A stretch of DNA of 24,000 bases, taken from NCBI GenBank assembly GCA_017432685.1, contig JAFRIR010000042.1, forward strand, positions 15,249-39,248, read 5' to 3'. Shown in pieces: positions 4,308 through 24,000 of this stretch. The stretch is from Flexilinea sp. GTDB taxonomy: Bacteria; Chloroflexota; Anaerolineae; Anaerolineales; Anaerolineaceae. Below the pieces are notes generated by a model. It saw only the letters and a list, made by a program, of their open reading frames with translations, did not search any database and had not been told where the DNA came from. Every line of letters starts with the position of its first letter. Positions within the stretch are counted from its first letter, which is position 1. A program made the translations under genes and the position numbers.

Positions 4308-4330
4308 AGGGTCTTTTTTTCTCTATATCT

Positions 4331-4358: not shown

Positions 4359-4454
4359 ATTTTCAGTCGTAGAAATATATATAGTTATTCGTTATTTTCT
4401 TAGCGTTTTTTTACTCATGCCGTCTCTTGCGCACTAATAAAACTTTGACATCAT

Positions 4455-4475: not shown

Positions 4476-4561
4476 CTTTCTTGTGGTAGTTCCGCAAAAC
4501 AGAATATCCCGTACTCAATAATGTTGTTTGTCTTATTCTTTCAACAACAATTGGTCATATC

Positions 4562-8704: not shown

Positions 8705-8800
8705 TTTTACCCCGCAAGTTCGATGTAGTCGATATCTTTTATTCTGCAATAATGCCATAGATGGAATTTACCCCCATGGCATTTTTCGTGTTTCTTCCCG

Positions 8801-9133
8801 TTATTCTGCTTCCGGCGGGAATACATCCGTGATCCATTCAAGGCGATTCGCCATAATCCGCACGACAACTGTATGAACAAGGGCATCCGTGATTTCCGTC
8901 GCATTCTTCACGTCATCGTCGGAGACAAATAGTCCGGTGACAATGCGGATGGTATAGCTCGGGTCTTCCAGAATCATTCGAATTGCACGGCGGGACTGCT
9001 GCCGCAGCGTTTCTCCCTCGATGTTTTCCACACCGACGGAAGCCCAGTACCCCGCCCAATCGAGCAGTTCGATGGCAATCATCTGGTGTAATTCACCACT
9101 GTCATATAAATTCCAACGTTCCTGATTTGTCAT
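8801..9133 (-). CDS. Hypothetical protein, 110 aa (between the fibre genes)
   Basis: The ORF has a strong RBS (GGAGGAAAA-ATG) and is tightly packed with its neighbours. I recognise no family. Confidence 0.6.
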   Translation of the reverse strand: MTNQERWNLYDSGELHQMIAIELLDWAGYWASVGVENIEGETLRQQSRRAIRMILEDPSYTIRIVTGLFVSDDDVKNATEITDALVHTVVVRIMANRLEWITDVFPPEAE

Positions 9134-9157
9134 TTTTCCTCCAATTTGTTTATTTGT

Positions 9158-9994: not shown

Positions 9995-10005
9995 AATCCT
10001 CCTTA

Positions 10006-11673
10006 TTATGAATATACGAAATAAACAGCATTTGTTGTTAAAGCAGAAGTACCTGCTGTAAGGTCTGTAGTAGAAATGGAGTAATCAGGTTTTGTCGCAA
10101 TAGCTGTGATACCGCAAACTGTTTTTAAATTTGCCGGAGAAATTGCCTGTATTACCTGACTGAATCCATCGCAAGGTTGCCAAGCACATAAATAACTTGC
10201 AGTGGTTGCTTCACCTGACCATTTCAAGCCTAATGTATATGATGAATTCGTGGCATCTTTCACACTGTTATGTGTGTGGCTTGTTGCAGCCGCGCCGATA
10301 TTAGCCGGAGTGATCCCAAGATTCGTCCGTGCATTCGCGGCAGTCGTTGCTCCTGTACCGCCATTGGCAATGGCGACGGTTCCTGTTACATTGGCGGCAT
10401 TTCCGCTGATGCTACCAGAAGCCGTACCATTCCACGACCAAACATTATTAACGCATTTTAATTGCGCCGTACCACTTGATGAGCCATTTCTTGTGATATA
10501 AAAATTTCCGCTATTGTTGAAAATTCCCCATGAATTAGCAGATGTACCAGAATCCCCGGTGTTATCTGCTCCGCATAATACTACAGTACACCAGTTGTTG
10601 TACATGTGAATGCGTATTCCTTCATTGTAATTTCCACTGGTTGGATTGATATTTACTATACCGAATGATTTTGCATTAAGCGTTCCTGGAAAAGTCGTAT
10701 TTCCGCTCGCATCAAGCAGTGTCAGCGTTCTTGTGACTGTAGAATAAACACCTGTATATTGCCGGACGTATATCGGCTCCGTTCCATCATCCGCCGTCGC
10801 AATCTCCATCCACCCGGCATTATTTGCAGTAGCACCTACCGCAACCCGACCATAATCATTTGAACCGCCAACTAAACGTATCTGTCTTGTCCCGGTGTCA
10901 CCGTTAGTGCTGAACAGCAAATCTCCTGTCAACGTACCGCCGGATAAAGGAAGTGCGCCCAAATTAGACAATGCGCCAGCCGCAGTCGTTGCTCCAGTAC
11001 CACCATTTGCAACGGCGACAGTTCCTGTGACATTAGCTGCTTTACCGGAATAATTGCCTGCCGTATCAATATAATAATTATTTGTTGTATTATTTCCTGC
11101 ATCGATATTTGCTTTTGTGCCGTAAGCAAAGGCAAAACTTTCGTTATCGTAATTTCCAATGGCCCAACCACCGCCGGTTTTTGTCTGAAAAGCCACAGCG
11201 GGAATCCATTGGCTGGTATTTAAAGTACCTTTTTTTACATAAATCCCTGCTTGTGTACCGCCAGTCCCCGCAATCCAACTTGTACCGCTCCCAGGACTTG
11301 ATACAATTGATCCTGTCATTGTGTCCCCGGTTTTACTGACCTTCCCGCCTAACTTTGTATCCGTCTCCGATTCAGTGTAATATCTGTCATCATGCGTGTG
11401 TCCAGTATCGGATTTTCCACTGCTCAACGCATTGAGTCCGATGCTCAACGCCTGTAATATTTCACTGATAGTAACCGTCCTGACTTCCGTGCTATCCCAT
11501 GCACCTGAATCATGCGCTGATGTGAATTGATATAACACGCCATCCTTCAGAACATAGTCTCCAACGGCATATTCTTCTTCAGGCGAAAATTCATCCGCTA
11601 TCGATGCTCTTGCTTTGGAATCGGCAAAATCTCTGTATACTCCGTCCCGTAAAGTTTTTGATATATCCGCCAT
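10006..11673 (-). CDS. Phage tail fibre protein, 555 aa (paralogue of the large fibre)
   Basis: The RBS is GGGAAGGAAA. It shares several elements with the 1398-aa ORF: one YAVGDYVLKDGVLYQFTSAHDSGAWD repeat, GHTHDDRYYTESE, two NGGTGATTAA motifs and the C-terminal YSISTTDLTAGTSxL motif. Confidence 0.8.
   Translation of the reverse strand: MADISKTLRDGVYRDFADSKARASIADEFSPEEEYAVGDYVLKDGVLYQFTSAHDSGAWDSTEVRTVTISEILQALSIGLNALSSGKSDTGHTHDDRYYTESETDTKLGGKVSKTGDTMTGSIVSSPGSGTSWIAGTGGTQAGIYVKKGTLNTSQWIPAVAFQTKTGGGWAIGNYDNESFAFAYGTKANIDAGNNTTNNYYIDTAGNYSGKAANVTGTVAVANGGTGATTAAGALSNLGALPLSGGTLTGDLLFSTNGDTGTRQIRLVGGSNDYGRVAVGATANNAGWMEIATADDGTEPIYVRQYTGVYSTVTRTLTLLDASGNTTFPGTLNAKSFGIVNINPTSGNYNEGIRIHMYNNWCTVVLCGADNTGDSGTSANSWGIFNNSGNFYITRNGSSSGTAQLKCVNNVWSWNGTASGSISGNAANVTGTVAIANGGTGATTAANARTNLGITPANIGAAATSHTHNSVKDATNSSYTLGLKWSGEATTASYLCAWQPCDGFSQVIQAISPANLKTVCGITAIATKPDYSISTTDLTAGTSALTTNAVYFVYS
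10271..10404 (-). repeat. ~135-bp segment shared with the large fibre gene (direct repeat, copy 2)
   Basis: See 5351..5485. The two copies are in the same orientation and share a 31-bp identical core. Confidence 0.7.
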
Positions 11674-11743
11674 ATATATTTCCTTCCCGGAATATACAGG
11701 CGCACCCGGAGATGATGCGCCGATATATCCGTATATATATCTA

Positions 11744-11752
11744 ATTATACCA
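11744..11752 (-). promoter_or_regulatory. Candidate extended -10 (TGGTATAAT) upstream of the 555-aa fibre gene
   Basis: On the minus strand TGGTATAAT lies ~70 nt upstream of the ATG at 11673 and downstream of the terminator at 11825-11854. There is no convincing -35. Confidence 0.35.
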
Positions 11753-11824
11753 AGTAATCACTATATATAGTTGTGTATATATCGATTATCTTTTGATATT
11801 ATATATCTGTCTTTCTCATATTAA

Positions 11825-11854
11825 AGAAAAACTCCGCCTCATATATAGCGGAGT
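11825..11854 (-). terminator. Rho-independent terminator after the IS-disrupted small gene
   Basis: The minus strand reads ACTCCGC-TATATATGAG-GCGGAGT followed by TTTTTC. It lies 30 nt downstream of the stop codon at 11884. Confidence 0.6.
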
Positions 11855-11883
11855 CGTGTCAATTTTTGCTTTGTTGTTTTCTT

Positions 11884-12089
11884 CTATACCTCAAACCACT
11901 CGTACGCTTCTCTGGTTACCGTCCGGACCGCCCCATCCCGATTAATGCCGACCACGATATCGAGCAGTTTCCCATCGATCATCGTCTTTCCGCCGATAAA
12001 GATTTCCGTCACCGCCGGGGACGAAAACGCCCGCATCGCTGCATCGAACAGCCTTAGGGTATTGGACAGCCAGATTTCCGAGCCATCGA
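11884..12089 (-). pseudogene. 3' fragment of a small phage gene split by the TnpB element
   Basis: The open frame reads ...LDGSEIWLSNTLRLFDAAMRAFSSPAVTEIFIGGKTMIDGKLLDIVVGINRDGAVRTVTREAYEWFEV*. The start of the 93-aa ORF in the track (TTG at 12165) lies inside the IS right end and is probably an artefact. Confidence 0.5.
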
Positions 12090-12300
12090 GCTTGACGTAC
12101 CCACGAGCTAAAGCTCGATGGGATTCTTTGAAAGAAGGTTGGTATTTAAGTCTCCACCTAACCAAAGTAGGTCAGGCCACCCTTATTCTTTGAGGGCTCG
12201 CCAAAAGCCCAATACACAGTTTTTCGTAATCGAAATTCTGCTTGCTTTTCCGTAAGATATTGGCACTGCCGTTAATGTCGGCATTCATGATGGTGCCATT
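12070..12300 (-). ncRNA. Predicted omega (right-end) guide RNA region of the TnpB element
   Basis: This call is by analogy with characterised TnpB systems, where the omega RNA overlaps the tnpB 3' end and the RE and reads into ~16-20 nt of flank. It contains the RE hairpin at 12100-12122. The extent is not determinable from sequence alone. Confidence 0.3.
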
Positions 12301-13664
12301 TTGACTTTTATACAATCCGCGGTAAATCCGTCTTCCTTTGAACTCGCCTAAATAAGGCTGTTCCGGCAAATAGACAGGCAATACATCTAAGTCAAGAAAA
12401 CTACTTTTTGAAGTATAGGATTCTTCCTGCTCGATATATTCCATACCGTATTTATCGCAGAGGTATTCAAGCTGCTGGCGAAGATCACCGTGAGGAATTT
12501 GTACAAAATTCTGGTTGTTTATTTTGCCCATATCGGAATTTTGTTTAATTCCCGGATTATATCCAAACACGATTTTTCCAATATCATGCTCAATACAGTA
12601 GTTGATAATGTACCTTGCAGTTTTTCTGATAGCGTCCTTTACCTGATTATTCCGTTTCTCTGTGATTTTGTTGATACGTTCCGTTGTATTTAGCTTTTGC
12701 TTCATAGATATAGAGCGGAGACGTGCAACTTCTTTGTTCCATTGGTGATTGATTGATTTGAGTTTACGACCGTCCACTATGAACGACGTCCCAATGGTAG
12801 TAATGCAGGCTGCTATATTGTCCACGCCGGGATCTATCGACAAAATATTGTTTTTATTTAGATGTAAATCCTCCGATACAGTTTTATATACATACTGAAT
12901 TTTGAAAACTTTACCGTGATTGCAAGGGAGAATCCGAACCTCTTTGATGACTTTGTCCTTTAGACGTTCTGGAAAAGGAATCAAGATTTCCTTTAAATCT
13001 GGATGAGCTGACCGGAAGGCTCTGCTCATAGGTACTTGAAAATATCCGTCACTGATTGATATTGCATTTTGAGACATTATCAGAGTGAACATACCACCCT
13101 TTTTGTGATAGTGTGGAATTTTTACATCGTGATAGCTGTATTCCCCTTTTTTACATTTCTTCAACAATTTGAAAAATGATTTAAAACTTCGATCCACAAC
13201 CTTCAATGTCTGCTGTGCAACACCCGCTTGCAGTAACGAATAGTTTTCGTTGGTCTTGCACTCATGGTAATTGTTTTCGTAAGTAAGAAATTTTTTTGAA
13301 TTGAAATAGCACTGTCGGATATTATAGAGAGCAACATTGTACAGATTATTGGAGTAGCGGCACATTTCCCGTAAAGCTTCGTACTGTATTTTGCTGAGCC
13401 CACGGATCACGTTGCTTTGTACTGCAAATGCTGCCATTTTTACTACCTCCTTCCATTTTAATTATTATATATTATTATACATTATTATTTAAATATCATA
13501 TGTATTTACTGATTTATTTGCGTTTTTATTTAATTTGCAGTTATTTATTTATAGCTATACATGAAGTCACCAGTACAACTTTACAGCATTATATAGAAAA
13601 TCAAAAGCGATAATCAGCTTTCATCCTCGGAGCTAAAGCTCCAAGGTTTTCAGCTTATTCAGAT
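12090..13664 (-). mobile_element. IS200/IS605-family element carrying only tnpB (IS1341-type, no Y1 TnpA)
   Basis: tnpB is flanked by related imperfect hairpins with a GCTTTAGC core, at 13625-13646 (LE side) and 12100-12122 (RE side). The boundaries assume IS608-like geometry (~18-19 nt 5' of the LE hairpin, 10 nt 3' of the RE hairpin). With those boundaries the flanking ORF fragments join in frame. Uncertainty is +/-20 bp. Confidence 0.65.
12172..13437 (-). CDS. tnpB: TnpB (IS605 OrfB-family RNA-guided endonuclease), 421 aa
   Basis: It has an N-terminal HTH_OrfB-like region (YEALREMCRYSNNLYNVALYNIRQ). RuvC-I is LSIDPGVDNIAAC (D202), followed by EESYTSK, and RuvC-III is NADINGSANI (D387). 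Length and motif order are typical of the family. The RBS is GGAGGTAGTAAAA-ATG. Confidence 0.9.
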   Translation of the reverse strand: MAAFAVQSNVIRGLSKIQYEALREMCRYSNNLYNVALYNIRQCYFNSKKFLTYENNYHECKTNENYSLLQAGVAQQTLKVVDRSFKSFFKLLKKCKKGEYSYHDVKIPHYHKKGGMFTLIMSQNAISISDGYFQVPMSRAFRSAHPDLKEILIPFPERLKDKVIKEVRILPCNHGKVFKIQYVYKTVSEDLHLNKNNILSIDPGVDNIAACITTIGTSFIVDGRKLKSINHQWNKEVARLRSISMKQKLNTTERINKITEKRNNQVKDAIRKTARYIINYCIEHDIGKIVFGYNPGIKQNSDMGKINNQNFVQIPHGDLRQQLEYLCDKYGMEYIEQEESYTSKSSFLDLDVLPVYLPEQPYLGEFKGRRIYRGLYKSQNGTIMNADINGSANILRKSKQNFDYEKLCIGLLASPQRIRVA

Positions 13665-13755
13665 GATTACACTTAAATTTCCTTATAAACCCATCGTTTA
13701 TGACCTTCCAGAGATTCGCCTCGAGAACATTTGGGTCTGGATAAGTATTAGTCAT
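13665..13755 (-). pseudogene. 5' fragment of the small phage gene split by the TnpB element
   Basis: The ATG at 13755 is preceded by TAA-GGAGGGGATC, so it is translationally coupled to the 124-aa gene. It encodes MTNTYPDPNVLEANLWKVINDGFIRKFKCN, then runs into the IS left end and stops after 10 more codons. Confidence 0.5.
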
Positions 13756-13765
13756 GATCCCCTCC

Positions 13766-14140
13766 TTATGCGATGTAACGTTCGCCAGAAATGACATCGA
13801 CGATTTCAGTCCCTTCGCCGAATGCAGCCCGCATTTCTGCCCTTTCTTCTGCGCTCAGCTCATGACGGGTGTTGCGGTACTCTTCCAGGAACCGATCCGA
13901 CTGCTCTTTTTCAGCCCTGATTGTGGCATCTGCGTCGAAGAAGAAGGCACAGTGACTGAGCATCTGAACGCATTCCAGTGGGAGATAATGACCGTTTGAC
14001 GCCCAATATGCAGCGCAGTTCCCATCCAGAAGGATCTCACCATTATCGGCCCGCTCCTGCATGTCAGCGATTTCGCGCTCGGCGTTGCGCTTCCAGTATT
14101 CGCCCAAAACCCCACTTAATTCTTTCTCGAAACGTGTCAT
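13766..14140 (-). CDS. Hypothetical protein, 124 aa (moron-like unit)
   Basis: The RBS is AAAGGGAGGCTGAC-ATG. A canonical promoter lies upstream. I recognise no family. Confidence 0.7.
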   Translation of the reverse strand: MTRFEKELSGVLGEYWKRNAEREIADMQERADNGEILLDGNCAAYWASNGHYLPLECVQMLSHCAFFFDADATIRAEKEQSDRFLEEYRNTRHELSAEERAEMRAAFGEGTEIVDVISGERYIA

Positions 14141-14186
14141 GTCAGCCTCCCTTTATTTGTCAGTTTTTTCTGTTCAACTATATATT

Positions 14187-14214
14187 ATTATATTCATTGT
14201 TATTTATTTGTCAA
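14187..14214 (-). promoter_or_regulatory. Consensus sigma-A type promoter (TTGACA-16 nt-TATAAT)
   Basis: On the minus strand TTGACA occupies 14214-14209 and TATAAT occupies 14192-14187. The -10 lies ~45 nt upstream of the ATG at 14140. Confidence 0.6.
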
Positions 14215-14249
14215 TATATTTATGCTTTATTATTATTCTCAAAAATAAT

Positions 14250-14274
14250 AAAAAAGACCTGAGAATACCAGGTC
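14250..14274 (-). terminator. Rho-independent terminator
   Basis: The minus strand reads GACCUG-GUAUUCU-CAGGUC followed by UUUUUU. Confidence 0.55.
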
Positions 14275-14377
14275 ACAATATACAATCGACATCACAATAT
14301 AAATATACATGAATTTCATCATAGGATAGATTCTAACGGATTTTATTTTGTCAGGTGGACAACTTTACCCTCGATAA

Positions 14378-14419
14378 GAAAAACCCCCGAAAATCAACGC
14401 TGTGCACTCAATTTCGGGG
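14378..14419 (-). terminator. Rho-independent terminator after the DUF4406-like gene
   Basis: The minus strand reads CCCCGAAA-(19-nt loop)-UUUCGGGG followed by G UUUUU. It starts 8 nt after the stop codon at 14427. The long loop lowers confidence. Confidence 0.5.
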
Positions 14420-14426
14420 TCTCCTG

Positions 14427-14741
14427 TCAGTCCTCATACAGCACATGCAATCCGTATGACTTCGCGACGAAATGTTCTGCCTGGCATCCCCGCGATTTGT
14501 TCCATCCCCGGCAGAAATACACCGTATCGCATTTGGACATTGTGCGGAGGGAGTTACTCAGATAGTAGATCCCGGTATTCTGTACGCCGATTTTTTCAGG
14601 GTCGATACTATGCGCCTCGAACAGCGTATCATCTACGGTGTAGCCGTTGTCAATAAGCCACCGCTTGGCTTTCCCCCTGACCGCAAGGATTTCTATTGTG
14701 CTAATCCCGTTCATCGGATGACAAATCATCGCCCGTTTCAT
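14427..14741 (-). CDS. DUF4406-like (nucleoside 2-deoxyribosyltransferase-fold) protein, 104 aa
   Basis: The C-terminal pattern CDTVYFCRGWNKSRGCQAEHFVAKSYGLHV matches the family hallmark xD-x-hhhhxGWxxSxGxxxExxxAxxxGhxV as I remember it. It overlaps the Gp15-like gene by 41 nt, so the true start may be an internal Met. Confidence 0.55.
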   Translation of the reverse strand: MKRAMICHPMNGISTIEILAVRGKAKRWLIDNGYTVDDTLFEAHSIDPEKIGVQNTGIYYLSNSLRTMSKCDTVYFCRGWNKSRGCQAEHFVAKSYGLHVLYED

Positions 14742-15405
14742 TGTTTTCCCCCTGACTCTTTCGTTTGTCTTTGCTTTTTCTGCTCAGATTTACCAGTGCG
14801 TTCTTCAGATTGTCTTCCTGCTTCTGCAGCTTTTCACTCTTTGGCAGCGCAAAATCCTTTTGCAATTTCTGCACCCGGTTCCTCTCCTCTTTCGGCATTT
14901 TCCCTGTCGTCTTTGCCTGCCGCGCCCCGACCACGAAATTTACCGATGTTGTATCCGACATCATCAGCCCTTCAAACAGGGTCAGGAACTCCCACCAGTG
15001 CATATACTCGATCTCCCACAGCCGGATATGGTAGAAAGACGCGAAGGAGCAGTAAATATAAGCGGAATCGTACACAAAATCAAAGGACGGCGGTTTTGGA
15101 TGTTCCTTGTCCCGTTCCTTTCGCTTTTTGGATGCGTCATTATCCACCTTGGGATATCCGCTGTAAAACTGCGCAACGGAATCAAGAAAGTCATCAGCCA
15201 GGATGTTCCCTTTCGGGTTTTCCTTTACCACAAGATCATACAATTCCAGAAATATTTTTGTCCGGTCTTCATCGGTTGCGACAGAAAACTCTTCCAGGAG
15301 ATACCCGGCTTTCATCCATGTGCGGAAATCCGTGTAGACATCATAAGGGATGCCGTCTACCACAATGGTATCGGGCATCCCGTCCAAAAGGATATTCTTA
15401 ACCAC
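14701..15405 (-). CDS. Phage_Gp15-family protein (tail assembly, normally adjacent to the TMP), 234 aa
   Basis: The N-terminus IVVDGIPYDVYTDFRTWMKAGYLLEE resembles the Gp15 signature (G-x-x-Y-x-h-x-TDFR). The C-terminal tail is Lys/Glu-rich. It has a GTG start with no clear SD; an alternative ATG lies 9 codons in. The stop is TAG. Confidence 0.6.
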   Translation of the reverse strand: MVKNILLDGMPDTIVVDGIPYDVYTDFRTWMKAGYLLEEFSVATDEDRTKIFLELYDLVVKENPKGNILADDFLDSVAQFYSGYPKVDNDASKKRKERDKEHPKPPSFDFVYDSAYIYCSFASFYHIRLWEIEYMHWWEFLTLFEGLMMSDTTSVNFVVGARQAKTTGKMPKEERNRVQKLQKDFALPKSEKLQKQEDNLKNALVNLSRKSKDKRKSQGENNETGDDLSSDERD

Positions 15406-15415
15406 AGCTTATAAC

Positions 15416-15817
15416 TTATCGGCGTTTCTTGCCGACCTGATTGGAACGGTCGATCATATCGATCACGGGCTTGGAACGCTGGGCCAGATTGTCCAGCTTT
15501 TGCAGCGTGTCGTTATATTCCTTATCCCGCATCTCCTGGTATTCCGTCTGATAGGCATTGTCCACGCCCTTGGCAATATAGTACATACGGTTCAGATTCT
15601 CCTTGTCGCGGTCATTCGGGAAGATCTGTTTCACCGCATCTTCACCGAGCAGGATTCTCACGATGTTGTAGCTGGCATCATATGAATCCATATGCTCGAT
15701 GTTATCATTGTGGGTCTGAAGCGCATCGTCCACAGCCTGGGAACGTTCGGCGATTTCATATTCTTCCCCGTCGATCCGCACGGAGACTTTTTTCGGCTTG
15801 TACGTCAAATCAATCAT
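15416..15817 (-). CDS. Putative tail assembly chaperone, 133 aa
   Basis: The RBS is GGAGGAAATAC-ATG. The call rests on size, acidic composition and position directly upstream of the Gp15-like gene, so it is mainly positional. Confidence 0.45.
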   Translation of the reverse strand: MIDLTYKPKKVSVRIDGEEYEIAERSQAVDDALQTHNDNIEHMDSYDASYNIVRILLGEDAVKQIFPNDRDKENLNRMYYIAKGVDNAYQTEYQEMRDKEYNDTLQKLDNLAQRSKPVIDMIDRSNQVGKKRR

Positions 15818-15840
15818 GTATTTCCTCCATATAGTTAAAC

Positions 15841-15875
15841 AAAAAAAAGACAGTTAGGATAATAACTGCCTTCTT
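15841..15875 (-). terminator. Rho-independent terminator hairpin, cassette B
   Basis: The minus-strand RNA reads (AAGA)AGGCAGUUA-UUAUCC-UAACUGUCU(UUUU) followed by a run of U. G.U pairs form only on the minus strand. It lies 33 nt after the regulator's stop and 25-60 nt before the ATG at 15817. Confidence 0.6.
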
Positions 15876-15891
15876 AGGGTCTCTGCTATGT

Positions 15892-15900
15892 ATTATATCA
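15892..15900 (-). promoter_or_regulatory. Candidate extended -10 (TGATATAAT), cassette B
   Basis: The 11-mer ATGATATAATA is identical to that in cassette A. It lies 9 nt upstream of the conserved box AGACCCTAAGAAGGC (15882-15868). There is no good -35. Confidence 0.35.
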
Positions 15901-15907
15901 TTAAATA

Positions 15908-16516
15908 TCAGCGGGGATCATTTCCCGCCGCATCCTGAGAACTTTTTTTCTTTTCTATCATCTTCCACAGTCTTTTGCGTTCGCTTTCATTATCCCATAG
16001 AAAATCGATAATGCCTTTTGATATGGGGAATGTCTTTCTCGCTTCGTTTCCGTACATCAGCCACTCCTTCCCAACACCGAATCCATCTTCGATTTTTTCC
16101 GCAACGCGATCTGATATTTTGCAAAAGCCTCTCTCGATTTTGCTGTAATGCTGTCTCGAAATCCCAATTTTTTCCGCAGCTTCAGTTTGGTTCAGCTGCA
16201 ATTTTTTTCTCACAGCTCTGAGACGGGCAACAGAGCCATCGGTATTCTTTGTTTCCAGAGAAGTCGGCTTCTCGGTAAATATTGGTTCACCGGTTCCGTG
16301 ATAAAACCATTCCGTATCAAGGTGGTATACTTCACAAAACCGGTCGAACCAGGATACATCTGCTTCTCTGCACCCGGTGATATATGTGCTGACGGTTGAA
16401 CCAGAAATTCCGGTCGCCTCTCCAATTTTTGCGTTGGTCAGATGCAAAACCCTTTTTACCGCCAGAATATTTGACTTGACCGGTTCGCTTATTATGGTGT
16501 ATTTGTTTGCTTCCAT
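15908..16516 (-). CDS. XRE-family transcriptional regulator with two HTH domains, 202 aa
   Basis: Two HTH_3-like segments are present: LTNAKIGEATGISGSTVSTYITG and LNQTEAAEKIGISRQHYSKIERG. Confidence 0.8.
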   Translation of the reverse strand: MEANKYTIISEPVKSNILAVKRVLHLTNAKIGEATGISGSTVSTYITGCREADVSWFDRFCEVYHLDTEWFYHGTGEPIFTEKPTSLETKNTDGSVARLRAVRKKLQLNQTEAAEKIGISRQHYSKIERGFCKISDRVAEKIEDGFGVGKEWLMYGNEARKTFPISKGIIDFLWDNESERKRLWKMIEKKKSSQDAAGNDPR

Positions 16517-16529
16517 AGTTTTCTTTCTT

Positions 16530-16555
16530 CCGGGAAATTATTATCAGTTTCCCGG
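16530..16555. promoter_or_regulatory. 8-bp perfect inverted repeat (CCGGGAAA-N10-TTTCCCGG) in the 5' region of the regulator gene
   Basis: Seen directly in the sequence, 14-39 nt upstream of the ATG at 16516. No U-run follows on either strand, so an operator or 5'-UTR hairpin is more likely than a terminator. Confidence 0.35.
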
Positions 16556-16924: not shown

Positions 16925-17137
16925 TTAAAATTGCCGTGCCTTGTTTTGTGCGACAACAGCCTCAGCCTCTTCCCTTGTTGCGTACAGTCGGCTCTCGCGG
17001 ATTCGGGTTCCGCCCTCTCGTTCAGTGAAACGGATCGTCACGAAGCCGGAGATCGTCATGACAACGGTCGCTTCTTCGATGAAATGGGTGTTGGCTATGA
17101 GGTATACAGTGGTGCCGGGTTTGAATTTTTCGACCAT
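16925..17137 (-). CDS. Hypothetical small protein (~70 aa)
   Basis: The track ORF is 16925..17287. Its N-terminal 50 aa look non-coding (ICDSHLCIVVLKLSI). The internal Met gives MVEKFKPGTTVYLIANTHFIEEATVV.... There is no clear SD. Confidence 0.35.
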   Translation of the reverse strand: MVEKFKPGTTVYLIANTHFIEEATVVMTISGFVTIRFTEREGGTRIRESRLYATREEAEAVVAQNKARQF

Positions 17138-17354
17138 AATAGATAATTTTAGCACAACTATGCATAGATGACTATCACAAATTGACGGCTTAATAACGAC
17201 GAAAATTGCAAAAATGTGGTTGTAGTTTTCCCCCACGGATTTGATGATTTTTTTAGACATTCCAAACTGATGGTATAAGTCTTGCAAGGTTATATTGTAT
17301 GATAACTATCACGAAAGCAGACTATTATTTATGAAAAAAATCTTTCTCTCATAG

Positions 17355-20300
17355 TTGTTATTTTGTGTTGCTCTATTTCACCAAATCGCATTCGCCGATG
17401 ACGAGGATATTGTATCTTGGACAACTATGGGAGAACCAAACATAAACATCAAGTACAGAATTGACTCTGAGGGAACACTCCATTTTGCAAAGGGAGAGAT
17501 TCAGTCAACAGATGATCCGACGCTTATTAAAACATTTGATTATTCAGAGAATGAACTTTATCACAAAATTATAAAAGTACAAGCTGACGACAAGATCCTT
17601 GTCAGGAATAACGGTACAGCATCGCTGTTTGAAGGTTGTTTTAAACTCGCCGAAGCAGACCTCACGAATTTTGATCTTTTTGACCCATCAAACACAAATT
17701 TCAGCAAAATGTTTGAAGGTTGCACTTCATTACAAAAAATACTGATAAACCAATGGGATACATCAAATATAAACAATATGTCCTATATGTTTTACAACTG
17801 TCAATCACTGGAATCTTTAGATGTGAGCAATTGGGATACATCCAACGTAACCAATATGGAACACTTGTTTGCTAATTGCAAGAAACTAACAGTATTAGAT
17901 GTAAGCAAATGGAATACATCCAATGTGACTAACATGAGGTACTTATTTTTTGATTGTAGAAAACTGACAAAATTAGACGTGAGTAATTGGAACACCGCTA
18001 ACGTAACAGATATGTCTTATTTGTTTTATTATTGCAGTGGTATAACTGAATTAAATGTAAGCAGCTGGAATACATCAAATGTTACTGACATGCACTACTT
18101 ATTCACCCTCTGCTCAGAATTGACAGGAATAAATGTGAGCAGCTGGGATACATCCAATGTAACCGATATGTCAGGAATGTTCGCCTCATGCAGTAAATTA
18201 CAATCATTGGATGTCAGCAAATGGAAAACGGGCAGTGTGACGAATATGGCTTCTATGTTCCAATTGAGCCACGATCTGAGATTTCTGAATGTAAGTGGGT
18301 GGGATACTTCGAAGGTAACCGATATGTCAAGGATGTTCGATAATTGTCTCCAATTACAGGCATTGGATGTCAGCAATTGGAAAACAGGTAATGTCATGAA
18401 AATGAACTTTATGTTTGGCTCCTGTGAATCACTGACATCGTTGGATGTATCAGGGTGGGATACATCCAAGGTCACTATTATGAATCATATGTTTTACCTT
18501 TGCAAAAAACTTATCTCGATAAATCCCGGTAGTTGGGATACATCCGAGGTTACAAATATGACCTTCATGTTTTATTATACTGATCTCACTGAATTGGACA
18601 TGCACAACTGGGATACAAGTAAAGTCACAGATATGAATTCCATATTCAGATATGCTCCTCTTCAAAAACTGATTTTAGGAACGGATTTCCGATTCACTAT
18701 CAATCATTTCGACCTTTATCTCAACACAGGCTATTGGACATATATCAAAAAAGATGCAAACATTACATCTCACGTCGATTACGGAACTGAATATCTGTCA
18801 GCATATAATTCAAATAAATTCAGCCCGGCATATAACAATAACCCAGATACCATGGCTGGTACCTGGGTTCTCAATCCTGTTCCTGTCATAATCAACGGTG
18901 TGGATGAAACCCATATTTATGACAATTCTGATTTTTGCACACAAATCAACTATCGGTTATCCAGTACCGATGAGCGGTTTACAGATACACAGGCTGCACT
19001 CGTTACATACAGCGGCGAAAACCAGGTTTGCGGGAAAGAACCCGGGGAATACCCATATCATCTGGATGTTGAAAAATTTTCTTATACCGGCAGCGATTAT
19101 TACGTTTATTTCAAACTTGGGACGGACGGAAAGCTGCTCATAAACAATCCGACCTTAATGCTTACCATCACCGCCGCCAGCAGTTCGAAAACCTATGACG
19201 GCACGGCTCTTAAGGCGGAAAGCTGGACCAGCAGCGGACTGACAGAAGGGGACACGATCACCTCCGTCACCGTCACCGGCAGCCAGACAAATGCCGGAAG
19301 CTCCGCCAATGTTCCATCCGGAGCAAAGATCAAAAATCAAAATGGCGAAGATGTGACAGATAACTATACGATCAGCTATGTCAATGGCAAGCTCGAAGTA
19401 AACAAATTCAGCAATGTAACGGTGACTATTGTCGGTGAAAGCAACACGACCGATTATGACGGCCAGTTACATGAAGTGAATGGATATACAGCCAGTGCCA
19501 GTACGCCGCTCTACCAGACAACCGGAGATCGCCCGGATTTCTCGTTTACTGGTACAGCTTTTGCATCCCGAAGAGACTCCGGTACTTCTCCAATGGGCTT
19601 GAAACCTGAAATGTTCAGCAATACAAACACAAATTTTGAAACAGTGACCTTTCATGTTACAGATGGTTACCAGACAATCAACAAGATCAATGTAACTGTT
19701 ACGATCAAGGGCAACAGCGACACAACAGCCTATGACGGACAATCACACACGGTCAGCGGACATACCGCTACCGCAGATACCAATTTATATAACGTCAATA
19801 ACAGCTTCACTTTCACCGGTACTGCATCTGCGACACGTACCGACGCAGGCACATCACAGATGGGCCTATCCTCTGATCAATTCAGAAATGAAAATACTAC
19901 CAACTTCAACACTGTGAAATTTCTTGTGACCGATGGTTACTTGACAATCATCCCCATCGACACCACCGTAACCATTACCGGACACCATGCCACCGCTCCA
20001 TACAATGGTGAGAACCACACTGTCAGTGGATATGATGTATCCATCGGCAATCTTCTCTATTCTGAAACAGATTTTTCATTCAGCGGTACGGCTGAGGCAG
20101 AGCGTACAGAAGCCGGAACGACGAACATGGGCCTGACAGCAAACCAATTCGCGAACAAAAACCAAAATTTCAGGACCGTTAAATTCTCGGTGACGGACGG
20201 ATATCAGCAGATCACTCCGATCAATGCTGCCGTAAAAATAACCGGTCACGGTAATTCCTCTCCCTATGACGGAAATGAACACCGCGTGGAAGGATACGAT

Positions 20301-21896
20301 GTGCAAATCGAAACTCCGCTGTATAAGACAACGGATTTTACCTTCAGCGGCACAGCCGAAGCAAAACGAACTGACGCGGGGACCACACCGATGGGCCTTA
20401 CAGCAAGCCGCTTTTCCAATTCCAATCCAAACTTTGATGTTGTGACATTCAATATCACTGACGGTTACCAGACCATCACGCCCATGGAGGAAGAGATCAT
20501 CGTTACGATCAAAGGACATACAAATTCGGCTGTTTATGATAAAACCGAACACAGCACCTCCGGTTATGATGTAACGAGCTCGAATCCGCTCTATACAGAA
20601 GCTGATATATCCTTCAGCGGCTCTGATGAGACAAAATGCACCAATGCCGGAATCTGCAGTATGGGGTTGACAGCCGAGCAATTTTCAAACATCAATCCCA
20701 ATTTCTCAAACGTTAAATTCCAGGTAACGGACGGTTACCAGGAAATCACCGCTTTGGACGGAGTCACAGTGACAATCCATGGACATAACGATACAGAAGT
20801 ATATAGCGGTTCTCCGTATGATGTTGTCCGATATGATGTATCTGTTTCCAACCCGCTCTATACAGAAGCTGATTTCACTTTTAGCGGTTCAGATACACCG
20901 GCACGTACAAACACAGGCATGGCCATGATGGGATTGAAAGCCGAACAATTTACGAATATTAATCCGAATTTCACCAATGTGATTTTCAACGTAACTGACG
21001 GCAGTCTGACAATCATACCCAAGGATCTTTCGGACGGAACGATCCGGCTGATCCTCGATCCCCAACAGGTCATCTATGACGGTCAGGAACACACCGTATC
21101 TTACAGCGTATATGATTCCGAGCGCGGAGTTACACTGATCGAGTCCGTTGAATATGAACTGATACCTGAAGAGTCCACCTTGCAGGCCACTGAAATCGGT
21201 ATCTACACAGTTGTCGTGAGTGCAGATTATATCGGAGAAACAGACAGCAACATCACAACAAAGGCTGTCAGCGGACGGAATTACTCCGGGAGAGCCTCCG
21301 ATACTTGGCAGATCATTCCCAAACCGGCTGATAACACGATGACGTTCTTCCCGATTTTCGATGAAGGCGTCAGACTGCCGAACACAGGGTTACTGTCAAA
21401 TGACTCTGTTCTGTCTTCAATTGGCCAGACAGATCTGGATATCACCCACCTGGGAATGACGCTCCAGATTCCGAGTCTTGATGTCATTGCTGAAATTGTG
21501 CAGCTTCCTTTCGAAGGCAGCACCTGGTCTGTGGATAACTTGGAATATCGTGCCGGGTTGCTCAGCGGAAGTGCCATACCCGGTAAGGGGTACAGCATCA
21601 TCGCCGCACACAACACGCTCAATTCCAGTGAATTAGGACCCTTCGCATCGCTGTCCTCTATGAAGAAGACTGACACCATCTTCATCAATGACAAAAAAGG
21701 AATAATTCAGCAGTACACTGTTTATGAAAACACTCTTTTGGAACCGGATGATTTCAAAGGGATAGCTTCAATTGCAGAACAGAAACCAGGGGCACTGATT
21801 TTGGTAACCTGTGAGAATGAAAGCGTCAATGGGGAATACCTGAACCGGCGTGTTATTTTTGCCGAGCCACTATCCGAAAATTACGGTTCCCGCTGA
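17355..21896 (+). CDS. Giant surface protein: DUF285/BspA-type 25-aa repeats, then MBG-like repeats, then LPNTG, then a C-terminal sortase domain
   Basis: About 13 repeats of LxxLDVSxWDTSNVTxMxxMFxxCxx are followed by one classical MBG-like domain (KTYDGTALKA...YVNGKLEV). Six ~89-aa repeats follow (VTIxGxxxxxxYDGxxHxVxGY...FSGTAxAxRTxAGTxxMGL...VTDGYQxIxP). LPNTG lies at 21375-21389 and a sortase-like domain follows. The track start is TTG 17355. An ATG at 17331 is in frame but separated from it by TAG 17352-17354. Confidence 0.85.
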   Translation: MLFCVALFHQIAFADDEDIVSWTTMGEPNINIKYRIDSEGTLHFAKGEIQSTDDPTLIKTFDYSENELYHKIIKVQADDKILVRNNGTASLFEGCFKLAEADLTNFDLFDPSNTNFSKMFEGCTSLQKILINQWDTSNINNMSYMFYNCQSLESLDVSNWDTSNVTNMEHLFANCKKLTVLDVSKWNTSNVTNMRYLFFDCRKLTKLDVSNWNTANVTDMSYLFYYCSGITELNVSSWNTSNVTDMHYLFTLCSELTGINVSSWDTSNVTDMSGMFASCSKLQSLDVSKWKTGSVTNMASMFQLSHDLRFLNVSGWDTSKVTDMSRMFDNCLQLQALDVSNWKTGNVMKMNFMFGSCESLTSLDVSGWDTSKVTIMNHMFYLCKKLISINPGSWDTSEVTNMTFMFYYTDLTELDMHNWDTSKVTDMNSIFRYAPLQKLILGTDFRFTINHFDLYLNTGYWTYIKKDANITSHVDYGTEYLSAYNSNKFSPAYNNNPDTMAGTWVLNPVPVIINGVDETHIYDNSDFCTQINYRLSSTDERFTDTQAALVTYSGENQVCGKEPGEYPYHLDVEKFSYTGSDYYVYFKLGTDGKLLINNPTLMLTITAASSSKTYDGTALKAESWTSSGLTEGDTITSVTVTGSQTNAGSSANVPSGAKIKNQNGEDVTDNYTISYVNGKLEVNKFSNVTVTIVGESNTTDYDGQLHEVNGYTASASTPLYQTTGDRPDFSFTGTAFASRRDSGTSPMGLKPEMFSNTNTNFETVTFHVTDGYQTINKINVTVTIKGNSDTTAYDGQSHTVSGHTATADTNLYNVNNSFTFTGTASATRTDAGTSQMGLSSDQFRNENTTNFNTVKFLVTDGYLTIIPIDTTVTITGHHATAPYNGENHTVSGYDVSIGNLLYSETDFSFSGTAEAERTEAGTTNMGLTANQFANKNQNFRTVKFSVTDGYQQITPINAAVKITGHGNSSPYDGNEHRVEGYDVQIETPLYKTTDFTFSGTAEAKRTDAGTTPMGLTASRFSNSNPNFDVVTFNITDGYQTITPMEEEIIVTIKGHTNSAVYDKTEHSTSGYDVTSSNPLYTEADISFSGSDETKCTNAGICSMGLTAEQFSNINPNFSNVKFQVTDGYQEITALDGVTVTIHGHNDTEVYSGSPYDVVRYDVSVSNPLYTEADFTFSGSDTPARTNTGMAMMGLKAEQFTNINPNFTNVIFNVTDGSLTIIPKDLSDGTIRLILDPQQVIYDGQEHTVSYSVYDSERGVTLIESVEYELIPEESTLQATEIGIYTVVVSADYIGETDSNITTKAVSGRNYSGRASDTWQIIPKPADNTMTFFPIFDEGVRLPNTGLLSNDSVLSSIGQTDLDITHLGMTLQIPSLDVIAEIVQLPFEGSTWSVDNLEYRAGLLSGSAIPGKGYSIIAAHNTLNSSELGPFASLSSMKKTDTIFINDKKGIIQQYTVYENTLLEPDDFKGIASIAEQKPGALILVTCENESVNGEYLNRRVIFAEPLSENYGSR
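17619..18680 (+). repeat. Tandem 75-78-nt coding repeats (DUF285 / 26-residue surface-protein repeat type)
   Basis: The periodic motif WDTSNVTxM / MFxxC recurs about 13 times in the translation. Confidence 0.8.
19413..21023 (+). repeat. Six tandem ~268-nt coding repeats (MBG-like ~89-aa modules)
   Basis: Repeat starts are near 19413, 19689, 19960, 20226, 20490 and 20760. The total is 1611 nt, or 6 x ~89.5 aa. Confidence 0.8.
21462..21869 (+). other. Sortase catalytic domain fused in frame to its own LPNTG-bearing protein
   Basis: The motifs are LQIPSLDV, then PGKGYSIIAAHN (His), FASLSSMKKTDTIFI, LILVTCENE (Cys) and LNRRVIFAEP (Arg). The His-to-Cys distance is 67 residues and the Cys-to-Arg distance is 12-13. 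In S. aureus SrtA the H120/C184/R197 distances are 64 and 13. Confidence 0.75.
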
Positions 21897-22123
21897 AAGA
21901 ATTGGGCACTGAAACAGCCAATACCTATGATATATGGTACCTGAATCCGGGATCCTGTTCTGCATGGCACGTAATCTGCAATAAGTGTATTATCAGAATT
22001 ATTGATTTCTGACGTATATATCTATACGCAGTTTTCTGTCTGTGTCAATATTTTGACCATATTGAAGATTATGCAAATATCATTTTTGAAATTTCAGTCC
22101 TAAAATTGGAGGAAGGAATACAA

Positions 22124-23707
22124 ATGATCATGAACCGTATCTTTGACATTATCGCTCCAGTTATCACAGTTATCGCTGTACTGTACGTCTCGTTTTCCAT
22201 TTGCAAATCGCTGTGTTCGGAAAGAAACAAAGGACAATGGTATGGATTCTTTCCATACAGCAAAAGAATCCATAGAAACTCCGGTCTGTTTCTGTTAATT
22301 CCTCTTTTGGCCCTGGCATCATTCACGGCACCAGAGATGTCTGTATTTGCGGAAGGAACAAGCGATTATTGCGGTGACCCGGCAGAAAACGATGGCAAGA
22401 ACCTTATCTGGTCTTTTGATGATGCTGCCGGAACGCTCACCATCAGCGGCGAAGGAAAAATGCAGGAATCCAACTATCCGTGGAGTGACTTATCAAGTGC
22501 CATAGAAAATGTCGTTCTCTCTCAAGGCGTCACATCGATCGGACCGAGAGCATTTGCGGGATTCACAGGGCTGTCATCCATCAATATCCCGAGCAGCATA
22601 ACCCATATCGGAGCCAGTGCATTTGAAAATTCAGGGCTGAGAACCATCACCGTTGAACTTGAAAACCGAGGAACTCCGCTTGTTCTTGGAGAAAATACCT
22701 TCACAGGCACAAACACTTACGAAGCATCTATCAAAGTTCCCGGGTATCACAATGTAACCTTCAGCGTCAACCCCGATAATACCGGCTTTTCTATCGGAGA
22801 ATTCTTATTCGGAAACAGTGAACCCGACCCGGGGAGCGCACTGCTGAGATGGACAGACCGGACAGTACAAACTGAATTGACCGCGACAGGCGGAATTCCC
22901 AATACATACCAGGTCATTTTCGAAAAAAATGCTGCTGATGCTACCGGAACAATGTATCCGCAAACCTTTACCTATGACAAAGCGCAATCTTTGGACGAGA
23001 ATCAGTATATCCGTCCCGGGTATTCATTCACAGGATGGGCTGTTGAAGCCAAAGGCAACGTTGTTTATGCCGACAAATCAGAAGTCAAGAACCTCACTGA
23101 AAATCAGGATGGGATTGTACTGTTATATGCCAAATGGAAAAAAACCGGTTCCACTTCCGGAATGAATTTCTTCCGGCTCCGCAATGACTGTATTCTTCCT
23201 TCAACCGGTTTCTCATCACTGCGACCGACCACCCTGTCCTCACAGCCAATGAACCTGAGCTATAAGCCCACAGGATTGAGGATGATGATTCCCTCTCTGA
23301 ATGTGGACATGGAATTGGTATTCATACCGAGGGACAACAATTCCTGGGCAGTAGAATGGCTGGGAGATCGCGGAGGAATTCTTGAAGGAAGCGCCCTGCC
23401 CGGAGATGGATATAGTTTTGTTGCGGCACATAATACCTTAAACGACACTGAATACGGCCCGTTTGCGATGCTTGGCGCGCTGGAAGTGAACGACCTGATC
23501 ACCATCAACGGTAATGACAGGAATAATAAGACGCTAAAGACATTCCGTGTGTTTGAAAATACAATCCTGACACCGGATGACATGAAGACATTGGAAAAAA
23601 TTGCAGGAAGTGAAGAAAATACCCTTGTCCTGGTGACCTGTGAGAACGAGTCAGCAGAAGGCGGCTATCTGAACCGCCGGGTCATTTTTGCAAAGCCAGG
23701 AAAATAA
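22124..23707 (+). CDS. Surface protein: N-terminal hydrophobic segments, BspA-type LRR, Listeria-Bacteroides (Flg_new) repeat, LPSTG, C-terminal sortase domain
   Basis: GGAGG at 22109-22113 lies 10 nt before ATG 22124; the track start TTG 22106 is less likely. The LRR_5-like segment is GVTSIGPRAFAGFTGLSSINIPSSITHIGASAFENSGL. The Flg_new-like segment is YQVIFEKNA...RPGYSFTGWA...LLYAKWKK. LPSTG lies at 23195-23209 and a sortase-like domain follows. Confidence 0.85.
   Translation: MIMNRIFDIIAPVITVIAVLYVSFSICKSLCSERNKGQWYGFFPYSKRIHRNSGLFLLIPLLALASFTAPEMSVFAEGTSDYCGDPAENDGKNLIWSFDDAAGTLTISGEGKMQESNYPWSDLSSAIENVVLSQGVTSIGPRAFAGFTGLSSINIPSSITHIGASAFENSGLRTITVELENRGTPLVLGENTFTGTNTYEASIKVPGYHNVTFSVNPDNTGFSIGEFLFGNSEPDPGSALLRWTDRTVQTELTATGGIPNTYQVIFEKNAADATGTMYPQTFTYDKAQSLDENQYIRPGYSFTGWAVEAKGNVVYADKSEVKNLTENQDGIVLLYAKWKKTGSTSGMNFFRLRNDCILPSTGFSSLRPTTLSSQPMNLSYKPTGLRMMIPSLNVDMELVFIPRDNNSWAVEWLGDRGGILEGSALPGDGYSFVAAHNTLNDTEYGPFAMLGALEVNDLITINGNDRNNKTLKTFRVFENTILTPDDMKTLEKIAGSEENTLVLVTCENESAEGGYLNRRVIFAKPGK
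23282..23698 (+). other. Sortase catalytic domain, second fusion
   Basis: The motifs are MMIPSLNV, then PGDGYSFVAAHN (His), FAMLGALEVNDLITI, LVLVTCENE (Cys) and LNRRVIFAKP (Arg). His-to-Cys is 70 residues and Cys-to-Arg is 12-13. By eye it is roughly half identical to the domain at 21462-21869. Confidence 0.75.
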
Positions 23708-23751
23708 GCAAACGTATTCTGCTGAGTGTTTTCCCTTTGTCAAGAGATCAG

Positions 23752-23782
23752 GGACGTCCAAAAACAGAGGACGTCCTTTTTC
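23752..23782 (+). terminator. Rho-independent terminator after the 533-aa gene
   Basis: GGACGTCC-AAAAACAGA-GGACGTCC is followed by TTTTTC, 45 nt after the stop codon. Confidence 0.7.
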
Positions 23783-23849
23783 TTATTGTACGAATGATGT
23801 CAGGAGAGCGCCAATTGACAGTATCGGGCAGCATTTGCCCCATCTTGCA

Positions 23850-24000
23850 ATGGCAGAAAATCCATCCTATTCTGAGCCAGTGACCGGAGAAGGAACTCTG
23901 ATCATTCATGCTAAGTCACTTGAAGACAAAAGCATCAGTCTCAGCTTAAATCCGAAAGAAGTGAATTATGACAGGAAAGAGCACGAAGTGACTTATTCTG
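23850..24000 (+). CDS. Start or fragment of a third related surface-protein ORF (runs off the right edge)
   Basis: The frame is open from 23673 to the window end and the first ATG is at 23850. The translation ...SLEDKSISLSLNPKEVNYDRKEHEVTYS resembles DLSDGTIRLILDPQQVIYDGQEHTVSYS of the 1513-aa protein. No SD and no signal peptide are visible, so it may be a remnant. Confidence 0.3.
   Translation, partial: MAENPSYSEPVTGEGTLIIHAKSLEDKSISLSLNPKEVNYDRKEHEVTYS

Follow-up and report, generated by a model that had tools for sequence, protein, structure and literature searches.

Why would a secreted surface protein carry both a sorting motif and a sortase domain in the same polypeptide? The question is raised by fusion 2, a leucine-rich repeat (LRR) protein encoded in a 24,000-nucleotide stretch of DNA from Flexilinea sp., a gut bacterium of the Chloroflexi (contig JAFRIR010000042.1; hereafter the window), which ends in LPSTG, a spacer and a sortase catalytic domain. 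Here we show that fusion 2 is a member of a large, undescribed family of such fusions, in which this architecture is conserved, the catalytic residues are intact and the C-terminal domain has a sortase fold. We propose that the C-terminal ~170 residues form a self-contained anchoring module, an "auto-sortase" that would act in cis and for a single turnover, and we put the probability of this reading at about 0.6.

The C-terminal module of fusion 2

Direct reading of the sequence confirms the layout described in the initial annotation, with LPSTG followed by 24 residues, a sortase domain and a stop two residues after AKP (Table 1). The motif is placed 170 residues before the C-terminus, with a predicted scissile bond between Thr367 and Gly368. 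The spacer residues are mostly polar, with F369, L377, P381, L384 and Y386 as anchors, and are followed in order by MMIPSLNV, GYSFVAAHN, LVLVTCENE, NRRVIFAKP, GK and the TAA stop at 23705-23707. An upstream paralogue, fusion 1, has a spacer of the same length, 72 nucleotides, as had been noted, and the C-terminal modules of the two proteins are 46% identical (82/180, E 2e-51), in keeping with the earlier estimate that their catalytic domains are about half identical. The two spacers align without gaps, with fusion 2 matching the family consensus at every anchor and fusion 1 a divergent outlier; of the earlier description of the linkers as equal in length and unrelated in sequence, the first part stands and the second is only partly right.

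The mechanical open reading frame (ORF) of fusion 2 covers 22106..23707 of the forward strand and had been taken as a 533-residue protein starting at TTG 22106. Translation likely begins instead at ATG 22124 or 22130, with GGAGGA at 22109-22114 upstream of both, and public gene calls give proteins of 527 and 525 residues. The hairpin found 3' of the gene has a folding energy of -20.6 kcal/mol (z -3.6), and none of 200 shuffled sequences was equally stable.

Fusion 2 has one element of a classical sorting signal, an LPXTG pentapeptide near the C-terminus of a secreted protein, but the hydrophobic segment (~15-20 residues) and Lys/Arg tail that would follow it are absent from fusion 2 and from all family members. 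Nor does fusion 2 have the transmembrane helix that directly precedes the catalytic domain of a typical membrane-anchored sortase; the polar spacer, LPSTG and some 280 residues of passenger come before its catalytic domain, and hydrophobic segments are found only at the extreme N-terminus. The protein ends two residues past FAKP and has no C-terminal membrane helix.

The domain belongs to the sortase superfamily (PF04203, MEROPS C60) by its match to the hidden Markov model, its catalytic residues and its fold. The Pfam Sortase model matches residues 394-531 of fusion 2 with 44.4 bits, against a cut-off of 26.6, and relatives score 41-64 bits. The catalytic His and Cys and both Arg residues are present in all 96 unique modules (close relatives and genomic copies) and are invariant in alignments A1 and A2; every member checked retains these residues, against the possibility raised earlier that the sortase-like domains are catalytically dead. 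We considered placing fusion 2 in one of the sortase classes and rejected this, as the NCBIfam class scores all fall far under their cut-offs: 22 bits for class F (NF033748, cut-off 166; fusion 1 scores 32.8), 21.1 bits for class C (NF033745, cut-off 160) and 18.1 bits for the marine class GN (TIGR03784, cut-off 158).

Conservation of the motif and spacer across the module family

A search with the C-terminal 195 residues of fusion 2 matched 95 proteins, and 326 of the 1.84 billion cluster representatives covered by a profile search matched at E<=1e-30, so that the search for further members suggested previously yields hundreds of relatives. Wherever the N-terminus is complete, the layout is signal peptide, variable passenger, LPxTG, spacer, sortase domain and end of the protein. 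For the best 150 of the 326 matches, in proteins of 141-5518 residues, the alignment reaches to within a few residues of the C-terminus. Among 142 new representatives, one per 50%-identity cluster, [LMIFV]PxTG is found 161-173 residues from the C-terminus in 139, and the three exceptions are single-residue variants (LPKMG, LLATG and LLETG). Because the same motif and spacing recur in 139 of 142 independent cluster representatives, the combination of LPXTG, spacer and sortase is not a product of chance. Counted by the convention of the initial annotation, the spacer is 24 residues long in 121 of 135 representatives, with a full range of 20-26, and in 80 of the 96 unique close relatives and genomic copies. 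Wide sampling shows only this narrow range of lengths, and the earlier view that spacer length is under selection is upheld.

Conservation was measured in 121 sequences filtered to less than 70% identity. In the motif, P, T and G each reach 1.00 and L reaches 0.86, followed by F (0.94) and S (0.74), and the X position is free, with Ala in 34% of sequences and at least 13 different residues overall. Such a pattern, three invariant residues and one unrestricted position, fits a cleaved sortase site. Every position upstream of the motif shows less than 1 bit of conservation, and because conservation jumps so abruptly the module can be said to start exactly at the Leu of LPXTG. Within the spacer the anchors are F+1 (0.94), L+9 (0.85), P+13 (0.91), L+16 (0.69) and Y+18 (0.95), and the beta1 motif h-x-I-P-x-L follows directly. 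Delivery of the motif in cis would be expected to constrain both the length and the sequence of the spacer, whereas presentation in trans would not. Pro makes up 9.2% of the 40 residues that precede the motif, against 4.9%, a two-fold enrichment of the kind seen in wall-spanning stalks.

A few members and positions deviate from the common pattern. In P0082 (173 residues) the sortase domain comes straight after the signal peptide, with neither LPXTG nor passenger, and from its sequence this protein could be a free secreted form of the enzyme. P0076, P0086 and P0092 have unrelated sequence in place of the motif region, and may be chimeric assemblies or degenerate copies. Immediately before the fusion 2 motif, positions 23180-23194 encode a single Cys (RNDCI); some relatives, amounting to 21-27% of non-redundant members, have a CxxC pair at -5 and -2 from LPXTG (e.g. 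FFRLCDECMLPATG).

Structural modelling of the module

We modelled the 186-residue module of fusion 2 with AlphaFold2 (AF2) using 24 aligned relatives, and read the model by its predicted local distance difference test (pLDDT) and predicted template modelling (pTM) scores and its secondary structure. The model has a pLDDT of 87.5 and a pTM of 0.86. Residues 1-39 of the module show no regular secondary structure and beta1 begins at residue 40, which leaves 18 coil residues between the motif Gly and beta1. By 10-residue block the pLDDT is 77 for residues 11-20 (LPSTG lies at 17-21), 73 for residues 21-30 and 91 for residues 31-40, and the LPATG block of a relative with a ubiquitin-type passenger reaches 81. 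On this model the spacer is probably a conserved, ordered segment and not a passive tether.

Foldseek matched the module to sortases of classes A, B, C, D, E and F with a probability of 1.00 and a template modelling score of ~0.6, at an identity of <=20% for nearly all, and its top matches are the lidded class C-type sortases 2xwg, 6bwe and 5k9a. Sequence matches in the PDB are weak, with a best E value of 0.016.

N-terminus and export

The two N-terminal hydrophobic segments reported earlier for fusion 2 are present (Table 1). The second has an n/h/c layout with V-F-A at -3 to -1 and, judged by eye from the translation, looks like a cleavable signal peptide; its VFA|EG junction lies at residue 82, downstream of the other hydrophobic segment. 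All ten full-length genomic copies inspected begin with a signal peptide, and most relatives have plain N-terminal signal peptides. Because the second segment resembles a signal peptide and relatives carry plain ones, permanent tethering of the precursor to the membrane by its N-terminus, as had been suggested, is doubtful.

Passenger domains

The passengers come from unrelated families, including LRR_5, DUF285, subtilase S8, DUF6273, Flg_new, Cna-B-named and ubiquitin-family proteins, which bears out the idea that the module has moved between different surface proteins. In the representatives their lengths range from 55 to 5350 residues, signal peptide included. For fusion 2 itself, the BspA-type LRR assigned previously is well above the Pfam cut-off (Table 1), and the Listeria-Bacteroides repeat is borderline, with Flg_new at 25.3 bits against a cut-off of 27 (Pfam) and TIGR02543 just below its cut-off at 20.8 against 20.95 (NCBIfam).

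About 30 of the closest relatives (285-311 residues) are composed of a signal peptide, a ubiquitin domain, LPATG, 24 residues and the sortase domain. Of five ubiquitin-type members that were re-scanned, four score 46.7-52.1 bits with PF00240 (cut-off 25.4); the passenger is modelled by AF2 as a beta-grasp fold with pLDDT >90, and aligns with ubiquitin residues 9-76 at E ~1e-6 per single copy. At the small end of the range, the minimal member P0032 (L004 10001-10705, 234 residues) has a passenger of ~45 residues and is kept on six contigs. It adjoins Wzy_C (O-antigen-ligase-like) and PMT_2 glycosyltransferase genes close to rplJ/rplL, a neighbourhood that may be a link to envelope glycan assembly.

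Distribution and annotation

Fusions 2 and 1 share 90%-identity clusters with MBQ6503103.1 and MBQ6503102.1, encoded on contigs of 148-157 kb of a Flexilinea sp. metagenome-assembled genome (MAG). MBQ6503103.1 (456 residues) is annotated as 'leucine-rich repeat protein [Flexilinea sp.]' and MBQ6503102.1 (1489 residues) as a BspA-family surface protein, both from internal ATGs, with the signal-peptide regions lost. Because public names follow the N-terminal repeats only, the sortase module goes unflagged in the databases; one relative appears in NCBI as 'class F sortase, partial [Flexilinea flocculi]'.

A genome scan, with one genome per species and a narrow search pattern, found 43 loci. The 42 substantial matches all belong to Anaerolineaceae or uncultured Chloroflexi; the remaining one, in a Verrucomicrobia MAG, is a fragment of 16 residues. 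The hosts include rumen RUG MAGs, a goat MAG, Leptolinea, Flexilinea and the cultured Flexilinea flocculi TC1, which has two copies, and a single genome can contain as many as 11 paralogues. Searching proteins again with a distant member as the query gave only 19 relatives with none beyond Anaerolineaceae, and because the scan pattern was narrow the limitation to this family is provisional. Among 3240 ORFs in 504 kb of family loci, all but one of which are from Anaerolineaceae, no classical signal of LPXTG, hydrophobic segment and basic tail was found other than in spurious short ORFs. Full-text literature searches for natural substrate-sortase fusions, for sortases of Anaerolineaceae or Chloroflexi and for bacterial ubiquitin together with sortase gave engineered analogues only, in a corpus that mostly leaves out subscription journals, so that a prior description is possible.

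Genomic context of the fusion genes

With the extension provided by contig L050, the locus is a cluster of four fusion genes (Table 1). Fusion 3 closes with LPATG, 24 residues, VQIPSL and a sortase domain; towards its N-terminus it is similar to the end of the fusion 1 passenger. Ahead of the TTG start of fusion 1, positions 17331-17357 contain ATG AAA AAA ATC TTT CTC TCA TAG in frame, and joining the N-terminus across this amber codon gives MKKIFLS*LLFCVALFHQIAFA|DDED, an interrupted signal peptide. Global recoding of TAG was considered as an explanation and rejected, as TAG ends the tail-fibre and Gp15 genes of the window and recoding changes no other long ORF. Fusion 1 may be a decaying copy, or may rely on restart or read-through. 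Upstream of it, an ORF at 16925-17287 (minus strand, 120 residues) has a 68%-identical DNA match at L009 5351-5575, beside a fusion gene of a Leptolinea MAG, which suggests that it is a conserved neighbour.

To the left of the fusions, positions 1-16537 are a prophage-like region on the minus strand. The seemingly gene-free stretch at 1-4500 is really the tape-measure ORF, which runs off the end of the window. The window has no megablast match in INPHARED phages, and no relative of the module was found in IMG/VR viral contigs. A phage origin of the module was rejected on these grounds and because homologues lie in chromosomal contexts, for example beside rplJ/rplL.

Table 1. Features of fusion 2, of its locus and of related loci. 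Positions are those of the window unless a contig is named.
Feature	Position	Strand	Details and basis
Fusion 2 gene: secreted LRR protein ending in LPSTG, spacer and sortase domain	22124..23707	+	Uninterrupted ORF
First hydrophobic segment of fusion 2	22148..22201	+	IIAPVITVIAVLYVSFSI, then K/R-rich residues; translation
Signal-peptide-like segment of fusion 2	22262..22351	+	KRIHRNSG, LFLLIPLLALASF, TAPEMSVFA before EG; translation
LRR region of passenger, BspA-type	22499..22717	+	Pfam LRR_5, residues 132-204, 44.7 bits, cut-off 27.7
Listeria-Bacteroides-type repeat of passenger, borderline	22907..23092	+	Pfam Flg_new, residues 268-329
Sorting motif LPSTG	23195..23209	+	CTT CCT TCA ACC GGT; from residue 364; read from sequence
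Spacer, 24 residues, 72 nucleotides	23210..23281	+	FSSLRPTTLSSQPMNLSYKPTGLR; read from sequence
Sortase catalytic domain, beta1 (MMIPSLNV) to FAKP	23282..23698	+	Pfam PF04203, AF2, Foldseek
Catalytic His442 (CAT) within AAHN	23429..23431	+	Invariant in family
Catalytic Cys512 (TGT) within LVTCENE	23639..23641	+	Invariant in family
Arg524-Arg525 (CGC CGG) within NRRV, sortase catalytic Arg position	23675..23680	+	Both invariant
Intrinsic-terminator-like hairpin	23750..23785	+	GGGACGUCC / 9-nucleotide loop / GGACGUCCU, then U tract; RNA fold
Fusion 1, paralogue: DUF285/PARCEL-repeat passenger and sortase	17355..21896	+	Sortase 62.5 bits
Fusion 1 motif LPNTG	21375-21389
Fusion 1 spacer, 24 residues	21390-21461		Then LQIPSLDV
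Fusion 3, 5' end in window	23849..24000	+	Continues in L050 10201-11112; 303 residues in full
Fusion 4, LPRTG and 24 residues	L050 11638-12255	minus	Converging
Tape-measure protein	1-4251	minus	Runs off window end
Tail fibre, 1398 residues	4562-8758	minus	CBM5/12 repeats and collagen-like Gly-X-Y
Second tail-fibre-like gene	10006-11673	minus
IS605-type TnpB, among phage tail genes	12172-13437	minus	OrfB_IS605 and Cas12f1-like TNB domain
Phage_Gp15	14701-15405	minus
Helix-turn-helix repressor	15908-16516	minus
Ubiquitin-type relatives, proteins P0002-P0028	L001 3622-4527; L002 8338-9243; L003 7989-8894; L007 ~5614-6534

A proposed mechanism for the module and its alternatives

We propose that the precursor would be exported by its N-terminal signal sequence, after which the spacer would wrap along the sortase domain and lay its own LPSTG into the active site. 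Cys512 would attack the Thr367-Gly368 bond, leaving the whole passenger hanging from the enzyme as a thioester, and an amine acceptor, likeliest peptidoglycan or another envelope amine of the Flexilinea cell, would resolve it. The passenger would in this way end up bound covalently to the cell surface, and the sortase domain, with Gly-Phe-Ser-Ser as its new N-terminus, would be freed after one turnover. In this scheme the sortase domain would do the work of two parts, the housekeeping sortase anchored in the membrane and the hydrophobic, charged tail of a classical signal.

Four points of this scheme are inferred: that the motif is cut, that this happens in cis, what the acceptor is and that the enzyme is set free. 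That the motif would truly be cleaved is argued by the invariant T-G with a free X, by catalytic residues that are all intact, and by an enzyme that always ends the protein and takes the place of a hydrophobic tail; that it would be delivered to its own active site is argued by the fixed spacer length, the conserved anchors and the confident placement of the spacer in the AF2 model. Indirect support comes from the enrichment of Pro before the motif and from the lack of classical sorting signals in the family loci examined (504 kb). From outside, the proposal is best supported by an engineered autocyclase, which has the same order of parts and forms its thioester intramolecularly (PMC9985607).

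Several observations weigh against this scheme. The pLDDT at the motif is moderate (73-81) and not high, and the contact of LPSTG with Cys512 is one that we only infer; the leaving Gly would stay tethered to the enzyme, which would favour re-ligation. Within the locus, the fusion 1 spacer keeps its length but lacks all four of the F, L, P and Y anchors, the only spacer to do so, and the fusion 1 signal peptide contains an amber codon, with the same TAG in assembly L050, while fusion 3 has no signal peptide. In addition, the envelope of Chloroflexota is atypical and debated (PMC7332563).

The main alternative is that LPXTG is cut in trans, by a separate housekeeping sortase or by neighbouring molecules, with the fusion serving mainly to export an anchorless sortase. 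We consider this unlikely, even though trans action is the norm for sortases, genomes with as many as 11 paralogues offer many potential partners, P0082 exists as a signal peptide and sortase domain only, and engineered fusions also react intermolecularly at high concentration (PMC9985607). Trans cleavage is at odds with the tight conservation of spacer length and anchors and with the coincidence of the module border with the L of LPXTG; there is also no hydrophobic tail to keep the substrate at the membrane for a membrane-bound sortase, and classical substrates were not found in the family loci. The module could also cleave itself for release only, with water resolving the thioester and the passenger freed with an end of ...LPST and no ligation. 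Sortase acyl-enzymes do hydrolyse without a nucleophile, and hydrolysis has been seen in vivo in engineered fusions (PMC9985607); however, a secreted protein needs no release step, a 140-residue transpeptidase that keeps all of its catalytic residues across more than 300 clusters would be costly if pointless, and Pro-rich stalks before the motif suggest wall spanning, which together make this explanation improbable.

In class C sortases an N-terminal lid occupies the active site in cis. An N-terminal segment filling the active site is a known sortase feature in this sense, and with lidded class C-type enzymes as the best Foldseek matches, the LPXTG of the module might be an uncleaved lid that blocks the active site, the large N-terminal part recruiting other substrates to a regulated sortase. 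To our knowledge, however, the lids of known sortases carry DP[WFY]-type motifs and not a perfect substrate; the invariant T-G with a free X is the pattern of a scissile site, the passengers are adhesin-like, enzyme or repeat domains from unrelated families, and the sortase domain is always the terminal, dispensable end, so that we hold a lid to be quite improbable. A very improbable outcome is self-cyclisation or head-to-tail polymerisation, in which the N-terminus of the same or another passenger would resolve the thioester to give circles or covalent fibres. The sequences show neither a conserved N-terminal Gly nor a pilin-type Lys motif beyond the signal-peptide sites, and passengers of up to 5350 residues are unlikely to circularise, although the engineered equivalent does exactly this (PMC9985607), some passengers are very small (~45-70 residues; P0032 and the ubiquitin type) and the best fold matches are pilus-polymerising sortases. 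Finally, mis-assembly, a frameshift joining two genes or a decaying pseudogene can be regarded as effectively refuted. The damaged neighbours (the amber codon in the fusion 1 signal peptide and the missing signal peptide of fusion 3) and the few family loci that are split into fragments (L026, L031 and L040) would fit such an artefact, but the same protein is encoded without change in independent assemblies, the ORF of fusion 2 is unbroken and has both a ribosome-binding site and a terminator, and the architecture is common to 139 of 142 representatives. The initial annotation had likewise argued against an assembly artefact, and several assemblies made independently contain the same genes, on contigs as long as 157 kb.

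Implications of a self-attaching module

If the auto-sortase reading is correct, it would represent a third way to run a sortase pathway, besides housekeeping and pilus sortases, in which each substrate comes with an enzyme of its own. It would account for the way in which filamentous Anaerolineaceae, a group with a poorly understood envelope, decorate their surface, and would give them portable anchoring that needs no compatible host sortase, suited to variable, paralogue-rich surface genes adjacent to mobile elements. For biotechnology it would offer a naturally optimised, pre-organised self-ligating tag with an ordered 24-residue delivery arm, which engineers approximate with flexible linkers. 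The two copies in the cultured Flexilinea flocculi TC1 make the idea directly testable.

The ubiquitin-family passengers raise the possibility of sortase-driven, ubiquitin-like tagging outside the cell. If the module thioesterifies its passenger, secreted ubiquitin-like proteins would be loaded on a Cys without ATP. One speculative and rather unlikely extension is that the module is an ATP-independent, single-use ligase able to charge any passenger; the ubiquitin-type members would then be an extracellular conjugation system tagging amines of the envelope or of foreign cells (host, prey or competitor), with the sortase Cys as the counterpart of the E1/E2 thioester and the LRR form in fusion 2 as the adhesin-anchoring version of the device.

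Comparison with known systems

The module shares with the classical sortase/LPXTG pathway (classes A-F, MEROPS C60) its fold, the His-Cys-Arg residues and an LPXTG with free X, as well as the signal peptides of substrates across the family and, in many members, a Pro-rich stalk before the motif. It differs in that enzyme and substrate are one polypeptide, the enzyme has no membrane anchor, the sortase domain replaces the hydrophobic segment and basic tail, and the reaction would be single-turnover. The class C lid and the N-terminal appendage of B. anthracis SrtA offer a textbook precedent for a segment N-terminal to beta1 that folds back over the active site, as we propose for the module; compared by sequence, lids are uncleaved non-substrate motifs, whereas the module has a perfect LPXTG with an invariant T-G.

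Among unrelated systems, the C-terminal Hint domain of Hedgehog and the inteins attack a junction in cis, pass through a (thio)ester, yield to an anchoring nucleophile and are discarded. The proposed auto-sortase would follow the same logic with no homology, as the module is a sortase beta-barrel, the Hedgehog nucleophile is cholesterol and no LPXTG is involved there. In type IX secretion, as described in textbooks, a folded C-terminal domain is likewise cut off and the passenger is joined to a surface polymer by the sortase-like transpeptidation of PorU; there, however, the removed domain is only a signal, the enzyme is separate, the hosts are diderm Bacteroidota and the folds are unrelated.

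The closest parallels are engineered. Self-cleaving purification tags have been built in the order SrtA-LPETG-target (PMC2901362), and the autocyclase (Commun Chem 2023) consists of target-LPGTG-linker of 7-19 residues-SrtA and its intramolecular thioester formation follows first-order kinetics (PMC9985607). Passenger, LPXTG and C-terminal sortase come in the order seen in fusion 2, with a linker through which LPXTG can enter the active site (PMC9985607), and the motif-to-beta1 distance of 21-33 residues is comparable with the 18 of fusion 2. The autocyclase differs in being man-made from S. aureus SrtA with flexible Gly/Ser linkers, whereas the natural spacer is conserved in sequence and probably ordered, and the natural acceptor is probably not the N-terminus of the passenger itself. 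With hundreds of relatives ending in the same way, the C-terminal module of fusion 2 appears to be a naturally occurring self-attaching tail; until now, such tails have been products of protein engineering only.

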